Positions 17,262-21,696 of a stretch of DNA of 22,950 nucleotides are shown here, piece by piece. This DNA is from Escherichia coli (lineage in GTDB: Bacteria > Pseudomonadota > Gammaproteobacteria > Enterobacterales > Enterobacteriaceae). Each line of letters begins with the position of its first letter. Within the stretch, counting starts at the first letter, position 1. A program made the position numbers and the translations under genes. The notes beneath the pieces were generated by a model. The model made no database searches and had not been told where the DNA came from. It saw nothing but the letters and a program-made list of their open reading frames with translations. The stretch lies in assembly GCF_003334355.1 (NCBI RefSeq), contig NZ_QOWP01000046.1; one strand, written 5' to 3'.

Positions 17262-17684
17262 ATGTTCCTGAAAACCGAATCATTTGAACATAACGGTGTG
17301 ACCGTCACGCTTTCTGAACTGTCAGCCCTGCAGCGTATTGAGCATCTTGCCTGGTTGAAAGAGCAGGAAAAAAAGGCTGAATCCAGTGGCAACCTGCAGG
17401 TGTCTGTAGAGGAGCTTATCAGAGGCGGGGCGTTTCTGGTGGCGATGTCTCTGTGGCATAACCATCCACAGAAGACAAAGCTGCCGTCCATGAATGAAGT
17501 CATTACGCAGATTGAGCAGGAAGTGCTTACCACCTGGCCCACGGAGGCAATTGCTCAGGCTGAAAACGTGGTGTTACGTCTGTCCGGAATGTCTGAGTTT
17601 GTGGTGAATAATGCCCCTGAACAGACAGAGGACGCCGGGCCTGCAGAGCCTGTTTCTGCGGGAAAGTTTTCGACGGTGAGCTGA
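17262..17684 (+). CDS. G: Tail assembly chaperone G
   Basis: 140 aa; the slippery heptamer G GGA AAG lies at 17660-17666 near the 3' end. Confidence 0.9.
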   Translation: MFLKTESFEHNGVTVTLSELSALQRIEHLAWLKEQEKKAESSGNLQVSVEELIRGGAFLVAMSLWHNHPQKTKLPSMNEVITQIEQEVLTTWPTEAIAQAENVVLRLSGMSEFVVNNAPEQTEDAGPAEPVSAGKFSTVS

Positions 17685-18100
17685 GTTTTGCCCTGAAACT
17701 GGCGCGTGAGATGGGGCGACCCGACTGGCGTGCCATGCTTGCCGGGATGTCATCCACGGAGTATGCCGACTGGCACCGCTTTTACAGTACCCATTATTTT
17801 CATGATGTTCTGCTGGATATGCACTTTTCCGGGCTGACGTACACCGTGCTCAGCCTGTTTTTCAGCGATCCGGATATGCATCCGCTGGATTTCAGTTTGC
17901 TGAACCGGCGTGAGGCTGACGAAGAGCCTGAAGATGATGTGCTGATGCAGAAAGCGGCAGGGCTTGCCGGAGGTGTCCGCTTTGGCCCGGACGGGAATGA
18001 AGTTATCCCTACTTCCCCGGATGTGGCGGACATGACGGAGGATGACGTAATGCTGATGACAGTATCAGAAGGGATCGCAGGAGGAGTCCGGTATGGCTGA
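17666..18100 (+). CDS. T: T-frame portion of the G-T fusion chaperone, made by -1 programmed frameshift from G
   Basis: Open frame in the -1 register relative to G, starting at the slippery site and ending just after the H start; same architecture as λ G/GT. Confidence 0.8.
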   Translation, partial: VFDGELSFALKLAREMGRPDWRAMLAGMSSTEYADWHRFYSTHYFHDVLLDMHFSGLTYTVLSLFFSDPDMHPLDFSLLNRREADEEPEDDVLMQKAAGLAGGVRFGPDGNEVIPTSPDVADMTEDDVMLMTVSEGIAGGVRYG

Positions 18101-20672
18101 ACCGGTAGGCGATCTGGTCGTTGATTTGAGTCTGGATGCGGCCAGATTTGACGAGCAGATGGCCAGAGTCAGGCGTCATTTTTCCGGTACGGAAACTGAT
18201 GCGAAAAAAACAGCGGCAGTCGTTGAACAGTCGCTGAGCCGGCAGGCGCTGGCTGCACAGAAAGCGGGGATTTCCGTCGGACAGTATAAAGCCGCCATGC
18301 GTATGCTTCCTGCACAGTTCACCGACGTGGCCACGCAGCTTGCAGGCGGGCAAAGTCCGTGGCTGATCCTGCTGCAACAGGGGGGGCAGGTTAAGGACTC
18401 CTTCGGCGGGATGATCCCCATGTTCAGGGGGCTTGCCGGTGCGATCACCCTGCCGATGGTGGGGGCCACCTCGCTGGCGGTGGCGACCGGTGCGCTGGCG
18501 TATGCCTGGTATCAGGGCAACTCAACCCTGTCCGATTTCAACAAAACGCTGGTCCTTTCCGGCAATCAGGCGGGACTGACGGCAGATCGTATGCTGGTCC
18601 TGTCCAGAGCCGGGCAGGCGGCAGGGCTGACGTTTAACCAGACCAGCGAGTCACTGACGGCGCTGGTGAATGCCGGTGTGCGTGGTGGTGAGCAGTTTGA
18701 GGCGATCAGCCAGAGTGTGGCGCGTTTCTCCTCTGCATCCGGCGTGGAGGTGGACAAGGTCGCTGAAGCCTTCGGGAAGCTGACCACAGACCCGACGTCG
18801 GGACTGACAGCGATGGCACGTCAGTTCCATAACGTGACGGCGGAGCAGATTGCGTATGTTGCTCAGTTGCAGCGTTCCGGAGATGAAGCCGGGGCATTGC
18901 AGGCGGCGAACGAGGCCGCAACGAAAGGGTTTGATGACCAGACCCGCCGCCTGAAAGAGAACATGGGCACGCTGGAGACCTGGGCAGACAGGACAGCACG
19001 GGCATTCAAATCCATGTGGGATTCGGTGCTGGATATTGGTCGCCCGGACACTGCCCAGGGAATGCTGGAGAAAGCAGAAAAGGCTTTTGATGAGGCGGAC
19101 AAAAAATGGCAGTGGTATCAGAGCCGGAGCCACCGGCGCGGTAAAACCTCAGCATTTCTTGCCAATCTCCGGGGAGCATGGGAGGACAGAGCGAATGCGC
19201 AACTTGGGCTTTCAGCCGCCACGTTGCAGGCCGATCTTGAAAAGGCCAGAGAGATGGCAGCAAAGGACTGGGTCGAGTCTGAGGCATCACGGCTGAAATA
19301 TACCGAAGAGGCGCAGAAGGCTTACGAACGCCTGCAGACGCCGCTGGAGAAATATACCGCCCGTCAGGAAGAACTGAATAAGGCACTGAAAGACGGGAAA
19401 ATCCTGCAGGCAGATTACAACACGCTGATGGCGGCAGCGAAAAAGGATTATGAAGCGACGCTGAAAAAGCCGAAGCAGTCCGGCGTGAAAGTGTCTGCAG
19501 GCGATCGCCAGGAAGACAGTGCTCATGCTGCCCTGCTGACGCTTCAGGCAGAACTCCGGACGCTGGAGAAGCATGCCGGAGCGAATGAGAAAATCAGCCA
19601 GCAGCGCCGGGATTTGTGGAAGGCGGAGAGTCAGTTCGCTGTACTGGAGGAGGCGGCACAACGTCGCCAGCTGTCCGCACAGGAGAAATCCCTGCTGGCG
19701 CATAAAGATGAGACGCTGGAGTACAAACGCCAGCTGGCTGCACTTGGCGACAAGGTTACGTATCAGGAGCGCCTGAACGCGCTGGCGCAGCAGGCGGATA
19801 AATTCGCACAGCAGCAACGGGCAAAACGGGCCGCCATTGATGCGAAAAACCGGGGGCTGACTGACCGGCAGGCAGCGCGGGAAGCCACAGAACAGCGTCT
19901 GAAGGAACAGTATGGCGATAATCCGCTGGCGCTGAATAACGTCATGTCAGAGCAGAAAAAGACCTGGACGGCTGAAGACCAGCTTCGCGGGAGCTGGATG
20001 GCAGGCCTGAAGTCCGGCTGGAGTGAGTGGGAAGAGAGCGCCACGGACAGTATGTCGCAGGTTAAAAGTGCAGCCACGCAGACCTTTGATGGTATTGCGC
20101 AGAATATGGCGGCGATGCTGACCGGCAGTGAGCAGAACTGGCGCAGCTTCACCCGTTCCGTGCTGTCCATGATGACAGAAATTCTGCTTAAGCAGGCAAT
20201 GGTGGGGATTGTCGGGAGTATCGGCAGCGCCATTGGCGGGGCTGTTGGTGGCGGCGCATCCGCATCAGGCGGTACAGCCATTCAGGCAGCTGCGGCGAAA
20301 TTCCATTTTGCGACCGGAGGATTTACGGGAACCGGCGGCAAATATGAGCCAGCGGGGATTGTTCACCGTGGTGAGTTTGTCTTCACGAAGGAGGCAACCA
20401 GCCGGATTGGCGTGGGGAATCTTTACCGGCTGATGCGCGGCTATGCCACCGGCGGTTATGTCGGTACACCGGGCAGCATGGCAGACAACCGGTCGCAGGC
20501 GTCCGGGACGTTTGAGCAGAATAACCATGTGGTGATTAACAACGACGGCACGAACGGGCAGATAGGTCCGGCTGCTCTGAAGGCGGTGTATGACATGGCC
20601 CGCAAGGGTGCCCGTGATGAAATTCAGACACAGATGCGTGATGGTGGCCTGTTCTCCGGAGGTGGACGATGA
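18093..20672 (+). CDS. H: Tail tape-measure protein H
   Basis: 859 aa beginning MAEPVGDLVVDLSLDAARFDEQMARVRRHF…, with the Gly-rich C-terminal region; 6 codons longer than the 853 aa I recall for λ gpH. Confidence 0.9.
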   Translation: MAEPVGDLVVDLSLDAARFDEQMARVRRHFSGTETDAKKTAAVVEQSLSRQALAAQKAGISVGQYKAAMRMLPAQFTDVATQLAGGQSPWLILLQQGGQVKDSFGGMIPMFRGLAGAITLPMVGATSLAVATGALAYAWYQGNSTLSDFNKTLVLSGNQAGLTADRMLVLSRAGQAAGLTFNQTSESLTALVNAGVRGGEQFEAISQSVARFSSASGVEVDKVAEAFGKLTTDPTSGLTAMARQFHNVTAEQIAYVAQLQRSGDEAGALQAANEAATKGFDDQTRRLKENMGTLETWADRTARAFKSMWDSVLDIGRPDTAQGMLEKAEKAFDEADKKWQWYQSRSHRRGKTSAFLANLRGAWEDRANAQLGLSAATLQADLEKAREMAAKDWVESEASRLKYTEEAQKAYERLQTPLEKYTARQEELNKALKDGKILQADYNTLMAAAKKDYEATLKKPKQSGVKVSAGDRQEDSAHAALLTLQAELRTLEKHAGANEKISQQRRDLWKAESQFAVLEEAAQRRQLSAQEKSLLAHKDETLEYKRQLAALGDKVTYQERLNALAQQADKFAQQQRAKRAAIDAKNRGLTDRQAAREATEQRLKEQYGDNPLALNNVMSEQKKTWTAEDQLRGSWMAGLKSGWSEWEESATDSMSQVKSAATQTFDGIAQNMAAMLTGSEQNWRSFTRSVLSMMTEILLKQAMVGIVGSIGSAIGGAVGGGASASGGTAIQAAAAKFHFATGGFTGTGGKYEPAGIVHRGEFVFTKEATSRIGVGNLYRLMRGYATGGYVGTPGSMADNRSQASGTFEQNNHVVINNDGTNGQIGPAALKAVYDMARKGARDEIQTQMRDGGLFSGGGR

Positions 20673-20998
20673 AGACCTTCCGCTGGAAAGTGAAACCCGG
20701 TATGGATGTGGCTTCGGTCCCTTCTGTAAGAAAGGTGCGCTTTGGTGATGGCTATTCTCAGCGAGCGCCTGCCGGGCTGAATGCCAACCTGAAAACGTAC
20801 AGCGTGACGCTTTCTGTCCCCCGTGAGGAGGCCACGGTACTGGAGTCGTTTCTGGAAGAGCACGGGGGCTGGAAATCCTTTCTGTGGACGCCGCCTTATG
20901 AGTGGCGGCAGATAAAGGTGACCTGCGCAAAATGGTCGTCGCGGGTCAGTATGTTGCGTGTTGAGTTCAGCGCAGAGTTTGAACAGGTGGTGAACTGA
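20669..20998 (+). CDS. M: Tail tip assembly protein M
   Basis: 109 aa; start overlaps H's stop. Confidence 0.9.
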   Translation: MKTFRWKVKPGMDVASVPSVRKVRFGDGYSQRAPAGLNANLKTYSVTLSVPREEATVLESFLEEHGGWKSFLWTPPYEWRQIKVTCAKWSSRVSMLRVEFSAEFEQVVN

Positions 20999-21696
20999 TG
21001 CAGGATATCCGGCAGGAAACACTGAATGAATGCACCCGTGCGGAGCAGTCGGCCAGCGTGGTGCTCTGGGAAATCGACCTGACAGAGGTCGGTGGAGAAC
21101 GTTATTTTTTCTGTAATGAGCAGAACGAAAAAGGTGAGCCGGTCACCTGGCAGGGGCGACAGTATCAGCCGTATCCCATTCAGGGGAGCGGTTTTGAACT
21201 GAATGGCAAAGGCACCAGTACGCGCCCCACGCTGACGGTTTCTAACCTGTACGGTATGGTCACCGGGATGGCGGAAGATATGCAGAGTCTGGTCGGCGGA
21301 ACGGTGGTCCGGCGTAAGGTTTACGCCCATTTTCTGGATGCGGTGAACTTCGTCAACGGAAACAGTTACGCCGATCCGGAGCAGGAGGTGATCAGCCGCT
21401 GGCGCATTGAGCAGTGCAGCGAACTGAGCGCGGTGAGTGCCTCCTTTGTACTGTCCACGCCGACGGAAACGGATGGCGCTGTTTTTCCGGGACGTATCAT
21501 GCTGGCCAACACCTGCACCTGGACCTATCGCGGTGACGAGTGCGGTTATAGCGGTCCGGCTGTCGCGGATGAATATGACCAGCCAACGTCCGATATCACG
21601 AAGGATAAATGCAGCAAATGCCTGAGCGGTTGTAAGTTCCGCAATAACGTCGGCAACTTTGGCGGCTTCCTTTCCATTAACAAACTTTCGCAGTAA
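20998..21696 (+). CDS. L: Tail tip protein L
   Basis: 232 aa, with the C-terminal Cys cluster (CSKCLSGC); start overlaps M's stop. Confidence 0.9.
   Translation: MQDIRQETLNECTRAEQSASVVLWEIDLTEVGGERYFFCNEQNEKGEPVTWQGRQYQPYPIQGSGFELNGKGTSTRPTLTVSNLYGMVTGMAEDMQSLVGGTVVRRKVYAHFLDAVNFVNGNSYADPEQEVISRWRIEQCSELSAVSASFVLSTPTETDGAVFPGRIMLANTCTWTYRGDECGYSGPAVADEYDQPTSDITKDKCSKCLSGCKFRNNVGNFGGFLSINKLSQ

Follow-up and report, generated by a model that had tools for sequence, protein, structure and literature searches.

Does the tail gene H of a lambda-like prophage in Escherichia coli, which is six codons longer than its counterpart in phage lambda, encode a different ruler for the tail, or is it essentially the lambda protein carrying stretches exchanged with a relative? 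Mosaicism within single genes is well known in lambdoid phages, and length differences in a tape measure protein could have consequences for tail length. We addressed the question in a window of 22,950 nt (contig NZ_QOWP01000046.1), by which we mean the whole stretch of DNA that was analysed. In the ORF list, H occupies 18093–20672 on the plus strand and encodes a lambda-family tail tape measure protein of 859 amino acids plus a stop codon, compared with 853 amino acids for lambda gpH (J02459, 10542–13103).

H possesses the Pfam domains, the collinear full-length homology, and the gene position of the lambda gpH family. TMP_2 (PF06791) covers residues 54–256 (E = 1e-70) and Tape_meas_lam_C (PF09718) covers residues 633–707 (E = 3.7e-21). 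The lambda tape measure protein in the PDB (8iyk, chain H) was matched by phmmer from end to end (E = 0; query 1–859, chain 1–853), and the lambda structures available for comparison are 8IYK, 8IYL, and 8K35. A locus in the PSS-12 prophage, 99.8% identical, is labelled in RefSeq as 'phage tail tape measure protein'. According to the ORF list and the RefSeq annotation of the near-identical locus, the two tail assembly chaperone genes lie directly upstream on the plus strand: gene G (17262–17684) and gene T (17666–18100), which is read by a -1 frameshift; the slippery heptamer GGGAAAG is found at 17660–17666 on the same strand. The end of T (18100) overlaps the start of H (18093). Downstream, gene M for the distal tail protein (20669–20998, plus strand, 109 aa) overlaps the stop codon of H, as it does in lambda, and is followed by gene L (20998–21696, plus strand; ORF list and RefSeq annotation of the near-identical locus), so that the surroundings match the lambda order V-G-T-H-M-L-K. 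In the C-terminal part of the protein, residues 633–707 are 98.7% identical to lambda, and the last 59 residues (801–859) are 100% identical. This identical stretch includes the counterpart of the C-terminal helix, residues 818–842 of lambda gpH, which in the lambda tail tip docks onto the gpI trimer (PMC10721106, PMC12617516). The hydrophobic, Gly-rich region preceding the gpH* cleavage in lambda is also retained in this H. We infer that the H protein works exactly like lambda gpH.

Where does H depart from lambda? The preliminary description of this DNA had claimed that H is six codons longer, that a divergent internal segment at about 19050–19290 follows the peptide DIGRPDTAQ, and that this replaced segment accounts for the extra length. 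The alignment with lambda gpH bears out all three claims. The two proteins share 92% amino-acid identity over all 859 columns with a single gap of six residues, and the divergent segment was located at 19043–19286, within a few bases of the estimate. At the nucleotide level we counted 194 differences, including the 18-nt gap at 19161–19178, of which 134 fall within the 244 nt of 19043–19286 (binomial tail 1e-89). All six codons belong to that one 18-nt gap inside the divergent block, so that the extra length cannot be attributed to scattered indels. Another 19 differences are clustered within 49 nt at 18656–18704 (7e-21 against the background rate), forming a second replaced patch that had escaped the earlier description. 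The remaining 2,287 nt outside both patches have 98.2% nucleotide identity to lambda.

The main replaced cassette (19043–19286, plus strand) comprises codons 317–398, with amino-acid differences at 323–396, and is 244 nt long, compared with 226 nt in lambda. It lies in the helical middle of the protein, with a Pfam domain on either side. Over codons 323–396, identity to lambda drops to 46.6% for nucleotides and 29.4% for amino acids. The two cassette peptides can nevertheless still be recognized as relatives (35% identity over 60 aa, E = 1e-4), and the AlphaFold2 models predict the same helix-break-helix arrangement for both, ruling out an unrelated inserted sequence. The two versions are old, weakly homologous alleles with about 30% amino-acid identity. 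The six extra codons (19161–19178, plus strand; residues 357–362, ANLRGA) constitute the only gap in both the protein and the DNA alignments, although their exact site is alignment-dependent because the surrounding similarity is low. Tandem Repeats Finder reported nothing relevant in the gene, ruling out a tandem duplication as their origin. In the AlphaFold2 models the six residues are placed at the start of a long helix, spanning 353–433 (81 residues) here and 353–427 (75 residues) in lambda. We used only secondary structure from these models, which have low overall confidence (mean pLDDT 39–40) and a local pLDDT of 61–82 at residues 321–380 of the prophage model; they give only a hint that the six extra residues are helical.

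The small upstream patch (18656–18704, plus strand) covers residues 189–204, which read TALVNAGVRGGEQFEA in this H and SALVKAGVSGEAQIAS in lambda, with 50% identity and no change in length; dS reaches 1.76 in codons 188–204. Compared with N15, the patch is 59% identical in this H and 29% identical in lambda. At this patch only, lambda is clearly the outlier.

The cassette alleles are widely distributed. The window-type cassette, longer by six residues, is common to this H and to the Stx2a-phage and PhiR5-type H genes, whereas the lambda-type cassette is shared by lambda, N15, HK225, and mEp237. Among 5,426 complete E. coli genomes, 972 contain the window-type and 3,008 the lambda-type cassette. 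At least 21 deposited phage genomes carry the window-type cassette at 90% identity or higher, and the Stx2a, PhiR5, and PhiR12 phages carry it at about 76%. Phages Kati, PhiR34_1, PhiR68_2, phiSTEC1575-Stx2k, and YDC107_1 and the PSS-12 prophage (WP_338388993.1) all have an H of the same length, 859 aa, with 99.6–100% nucleotide identity across 19043–19290. The phage genes in this group are 96.9–98.6% identical to this H over the whole gene. The group differs from this H only by point differences that are scattered and lie for the most part in the C-terminal half, and the PSS-12 protein differs at 3 residues. Kati, PhiR34_1, PhiR68_2, and phiSTEC1575-Stx2k are recorded as propagated on E. coli with an 859-aa H that is 98.6% identical, and the window-type allele is therefore probably functional in virions. 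The cluster of 859-aa proteins to which this allele belongs (P0002) has 7,781 members. The H of this prophage is hence a common, ordinary, and already known natural allele. Thousands of E. coli and phage sequences already include it with annotation, and the finding, although real, is of little import in itself. Our literature searches did not find a paper on this specific H polymorphism. At the cassette position, the textbook lambda H stands for just one of two common classes of allele.

Which of the two alleles is the newcomer depends on the outgroup. In 60-nt windows across the cassette, this H is 70–80% identical to the H of Stx2a and PhiR5, and its cassette is as diverged from theirs as the rest of the gene, whereas lambda is only 17–63% identical. 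The deeper outgroup, comprising N15 gp16, HK225, and mEp237, belongs to the same protein family (58% identity for N15) and has the lambda-type cassette without the six residues. At residues 323–356, lambda is 76.5% identical to N15, close to the neighbouring 75%, and this H only 29%. The evidence on polarity is accordingly split between the nearest outgroup, which is window-type, and the deeper one, which is lambda-type. The preliminary description had read the segment as a mosaic internal cassette; the replaced segment stands, but it does not follow that this H is the deviant, as the same cassette type occurs in the nearest divergent H lineage. The reverse proposition for the cassette, with lambda as the recombinant and this H as the norm, was also dropped, since N15, HK225, and mEp237 share the lambda cassette type. 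On these comparisons, at least two old classes of cassette allele circulate among lambdoid phages.

How did such alleles come to sit within otherwise nearly identical genes? Synonymous sites are saturated throughout cassette codons 317–398, while the flanks have dS values of 0.036–0.092. The saturation in both patches combined with low dS outside them indicates that they arose by recombinational replacement rather than by scattered indels or fast local evolution. The segment boundaries against lambda are sharp, and the same cassette is present in several different H backgrounds, supporting the internal mosaic cassette that had been suspected from the sequence. Among 17 H proteins, three of the four possible combinations of patch and cassette were seen, and the lambda-type patch accompanies the window-type cassette in P0008, P0020, P0091, and PhiR47_2; patch and cassette thus assort independently of each other. 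This evidence consists of identity, dS, clustering, and allele distribution. Divergence in place, through locally accelerated evolution or a small insertion followed by drift, might seem plausible in a region between two conserved Pfam domains, within a central portion of the protein that tolerates indels in other family members. It is, however, difficult to reconcile with synonymous saturation that extends even to the edge codons 317–322 and 397–398, where the amino acids are identical, next to flanks with dS of 0.04–0.09. Diverged relatives of each allele furthermore occur in other lineages, the alleles are found joined to different flanks, and the six codons show no tandem-repeat origin. 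We consider divergence in place extremely improbable. With recombinational replacement, H would be lambda's own gene, at about 98% nucleotide identity, apart from two stretches that homologous recombination swapped with those of a distantly related H allele, and the conserved flanks would be the sites where recombination shuffles the cassette classes among near-identical H genes.

The six residues could still matter if they changed the tail. Each tape-measure residue adds about 0.15 nm to the length of the tail (a value of Katsura & Hendrix 1984 quoted in PMC5099701), and the extra residues are tentatively predicted to be helical, so that they would lengthen the ruler helix by about 0.9 nm (6 x 0.15 nm). 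The lambda tail, however, is built from 32 gpV rings with an axial rise of about 4.2 nm (42 Å) per ring (PMC10721106), and 0.9 nm corresponds to about 0.2 of a ring. Because the length of the tube is quantised in rings, the share of 33-ring tails could at most shift slightly. The lambda H deletions of Katsura and Hendrix and the TP901-1 deletions and duplications follow the same principle, in which the central helical part sets the tail length, but they involve far larger changes than six residues; in the account given in PMC5099701, these variants span tens to hundreds of residues with tail shifts of many nanometres. Moreover, the Q antiterminator gene of this prophage is cut by an IS element, and this copy may be unable to make tails unaided. 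A measurably longer tail, as the preliminary description had suggested in a marginal form, is therefore very unlikely, and the effect of the cassette on tail length is predicted to be negligible and practically unmeasurable. Since the addition amounts to about one-fifth of a gpV ring, the tail would be expected to keep about 32 rings, and exchanging the cassette would be functionally near-neutral. We regard this whole account, a lambda-like H with two recombinant stretches, a tail of about 32 rings, and a near-neutral swap, as highly probable.

Near-neutrality might be questioned on other grounds, because the two deep classes at high frequency could reflect selection instead. The cassette classes would then be a balanced polymorphism, with the segment contacting a host inner-membrane DNA-entry factor or a tape-measure-recognising protein of defence or superinfection exclusion; the alternative allele would alter host-factor dependence or permit escape from defence, and the length difference of six residues would be a by-product. 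The two classes are both common (972 and 3,008 of the 5,426 genomes), and they are old, with saturated dS, and each occurs in several backgrounds. The literature also describes tape measure proteins as contact points for host and defence proteins. Lambda gpH was proximity-labelled by ManZ and is associated with the SNIPE nuclease, and escapers of phage Bas14 mapped to short stretches inside the tape measure protein, among them a deletion and a duplication of 7 residues each (bioRxiv 10.1101/2025.11.03.685801). Tab of phage JBD26 targets the tape measure protein (PMC10884400), and manXYZ resistance is bypassed by mutations in lambda H or V (PMC9850009); the positions of the known ManYZ-bypass mutations in H were not found in the literature searched. 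None of these observations, however, bears on this cassette, and the SNIPE study grouped lambda relatives at >90% tape-measure identity, which places both alleles (92% identical) in one clade. The cassette pN/pS of 0.48/0.76 does not point to positive selection, although the ratio is uninformative at saturated sites, and under neutrality recombination among lambdoid phages is expected to produce mosaic alleles. We thus consider a balanced polymorphism unlikely, and the more specific proposal, in which the cassette classes and the small upstream patch are both kept by selection through an entry factor or a tape-measure-recognising defence or exclusion protein and a swap changes which hosts or lysogens are open to injection, decidedly doubtful. 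If the cassette did govern host-factor use or defence escape, it would offer a small, naturally occurring means of probing how the tape measure protein acts in injection.

Returning to the near-neutral swap, a change of six residues is much smaller than the single ring that the ruler can resolve and should not be taken for a tail-length variant. Nor is the cassette a hotspot of length variation in the H family, which naturally ranges from 835 to 953 aa: the indels are scattered, at 153–167, 366–385, after 440, after 521, after 531, and at 715–719. The real natural ruler variants in the family are the 903- and 953-aa relatives, which carry perfect 50-aa tandem duplications.

The open reading frame at 18093–20672 (plus strand, 859 residues) is gene H, the tail tape measure gene of the lambda family. 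It stands in a lambda-type row of tail genes (V, G, T, H, M, L, K) with the frameshift heptamer GGGAAAG at gene T (17660–17666), and its product contains the Pfam domains TMP_2 (residues 54–256) and Tape_meas_lam_C (residues 633–707) and matches the lambda tape measure chain in PDB 8IYK along its entire length. The whole window is prophage DNA from an E. coli chromosome. It matches E. coli PSS-12 (NZ_AP027697) best, at 99.8% identity across all 22,950 bases, and the PSS-12 counterpart of H, annotated as 'phage tail tape measure protein', differs at three residues. Gene K (21702–22445), starting directly after L, encodes a 247-aa C40-family peptidase; lambda K has 199 aa in the old J02459 annotation, a gap that lies in the annotation and not in the sequence.

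We aligned H with lambda gpH (853 aa; J02459, 10542–13103). The two proteins share 92% amino-acid identity with a single six-residue gap opposite window residues 357–362, bearing out the six-codon excess proposed in the preliminary description; the gap falls within the divergent internal segment located there accurately, instead of scattered small indels. The 194 DNA differences are distributed very unevenly. The cassette (19043–19286, codons 317–398) holds 134 of them, including an 18-nt gap at 19161–19178, and a small patch at 18656–18704 (residues 189–204) holds another 19, while the other 2,287 nt have 41 dispersed differences and are 98.2% identical to lambda. Chance would not produce such clustering (binomial tail 1e-89 in the cassette, 7e-21 in the patch). 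The regions with assigned roles, namely the TMP_2 domain at the N-terminus, the hydrophobic, Gly-rich region, and the helix at the C-terminus that binds gpI, are all 98–100% identical to lambda.

Silent sites argue for replacement of both segments by recombination with a distant allele. Codons 323–396 have 46.6% nucleotide and 29.4% amino-acid identity with saturated synonymous sites, and the edge codons 317–322 and 397–398 encode the same amino acids, yet essentially all their synonymous sites differ. The small patch has a dS of 1.76 (19 differences in 49 nt), compared with 0.036, 0.092, and 0.063 for the three flanking stretches of H. Fast protein evolution of the segments in place is very unlikely because it would leave silent sites unsaturated. 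The idea of a mosaic internal cassette is thus supported, with the small patch, overlooked before, as an addition.

Relatives of H point both ways on the direction of the cassette exchange. The H lineage of the Stx2a and PhiR5 phages has ~80% nucleotide identity overall; the window cassette is 70–80% identical to this lineage, like the remaining gene, whereas the lambda cassette reaches only 17–63%. This comparison first suggested lambda as the carrier of a foreign cassette, a reading we set aside because the tape measure proteins of N15, HK225, and mEp237 resemble the lambda cassette (77–79% identity over its first 43 residues). In the full alignment, residues 323–356 are 76.5% identical between lambda and N15, close to the 75% of the neighbouring stretch, and 29% identical between the window and N15; N15, as lambda, is without the six extra residues. 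With the window type close to Stx2a/PhiR5 and the lambda type close to N15, the cassette exists as two classes of old alleles that both have diverged relatives of their own. The small patch has an identity to N15 of 29% in lambda and 59% in the window; here it is lambda, not the window, that stands apart from N15 and the Stx2a-type lineage.

The cassette is not a foreign insert. The window and lambda peptides retain weak homology (35% over 60 residues, E = 1e-4), and the AlphaFold2 models share the same local layout, comprising a helix at 321–344/345, a 7–8-residue break, and a long helix. The latter is predicted at 353–433 in the window (81 residues) and 353–427 in lambda (75), in models of low overall confidence (mean pLDDT 39–40; locally 61–82 at residues 321–380 of the window model). 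The cassette is thus an allelic version of one structural element. No tandem-repeat origin was found for the six extra codons.

Two deep classes at high frequency could also reflect a selected polymorphism, because host entry factors and defences both make contact with tape measure proteins. In lambda, ManZ proximity-labels gpH, which is also associated with the SNIPE nuclease; the changes in Bas14 escapers map to one short stretch inside the tape measure protein and include a deletion and a duplication of seven residues each (10.1101/2025.11.03.685801). The tape measure protein is the target of Tab from phage JBD26 (PMC10884400), and lambda overcomes manXYZ resistance through mutations in H or V (PMC9850009). 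Nothing ties the cassette segment to the ManZ, SNIPE, Tab, or manXYZ interactions, and we therefore consider selection an improbable explanation of the two old allele classes.

The patch and the cassette assort independently among 17 H proteins: a lambda-type patch accompanies a window-type cassette in PhiR47_2 and three other H proteins (P0008, P0020, P0091), and both are of lambda type in P0003 and P0101. A third variable stretch, residues 786–829 (20448–20579), has one version shared by the window and lambda and is strongly different in the family members P0001 and P0002, phage 2B8, and PhiR47_2 (63–78% nucleotide identity). H-family lengths range from 835 to 953 aa through variation scattered across many sites, including deletions at 153–167, 366–385, 525–545, and 715–719 and a 7-residue insertion after residue 521, which speaks against the cassette as a general length hotspot. 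The six-residue difference itself belongs specifically to the cassette allele.

In the lambda tail tube, 32 gpV rings are stacked at an axial rise of ~42 Å (PMC10721106), and six gpH copies occupy its lumen, resolved only as the C-terminal helix docked on gpI (PMC12617516). Lambda uses ~27 residues per ring. With the ruler constant of ~0.15 nm per residue (Katsura & Hendrix 1984, quoted in PMC5099701), six extra helical residues would amount to ~0.9 nm, or 0.21 of one ring. As the tube grows by whole rings, the modal ring number would stay unchanged, with at most a slight shift in the distribution; by this arithmetic a longer tail would be quantitatively negligible. P0101 (903 aa) and P0003 (953 aa) carry a perfect 50-residue tandem duplication after window residue 531, and P0003 a second one after residue 440. 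Such natural rulers, longer by 50 and 100 residues, would be expected to lengthen the tail by ~1.8 and 3.6 gpV rings, although the sequences may be assembly artefacts.

Mosaicism of the kind illustrated by the H alleles is textbook knowledge for lambdoid phages, and the 859-aa allele is common and already annotated, making the finding ordinary; no description of this H polymorphism was found in the literature searched. At ≥90% identity, the window-type cassette occurs in 21 deposited phage genomes, including Kati, PhiR34_1, PhiR68_2, phiSTEC1575-Stx2k, YDC107_1, 2B8, the 2E9 group, and ev243; another 40 records hold a related cassette (~76% identity), namely those of Stx2a-converting phages, PhiR5_1, the PhiR12 series, and phage 204576. 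By megablast, 972 of 5,426 complete E. coli genomes carry the window type and 3,008 the lambda type, the ~76% class being left out of these counts. In a large protein collection, 7,781 sequences belong to the 859-aa cluster P0002 alone. Phages whose records name E. coli as propagation host carry an H gene 98.6% identical to that of the window over its whole length, indicating that the allele is probably functional. H is interrupted in Stx2a_JNE122398 (1020–3598; split into three ORFs of 401, 188, and 333 aa) and PhiR5_1 (1014–3586; annotated as two CDS); the breaks may be real or may stem from sequencing errors. MW057783.1 ('Campylobacter phage CJLB-4'), a lambda-like record of 48,361 nt with H and cassette identical to those of lambda, looks like lambda DNA deposited under the name of a Campylobacter phage.

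The window begins with the left end of an IS629/IS1203-type IS3-family element (1–78, minus strand; terminal inverted repeat TGAACCGCCCCGG..., orfA start MTKNTRFS), which interrupts the Q antiterminator gene and leaves its last (C-terminal) 79 codons (81–320). With Q cut, expression of the late operon, to which H belongs, may depend on Q being supplied in trans. A Qin-type lysis and cold-shock module (3463–7353; essD, ydfR-like, rrrQ, rzpQ, cspI, ynfQ, ynfR, frameshifted ynfN, gnsB, ydfO, ynfO) is joined to the lambda-type head and tail module, and similarity to lambda itself starts at ~6633 by megablast.
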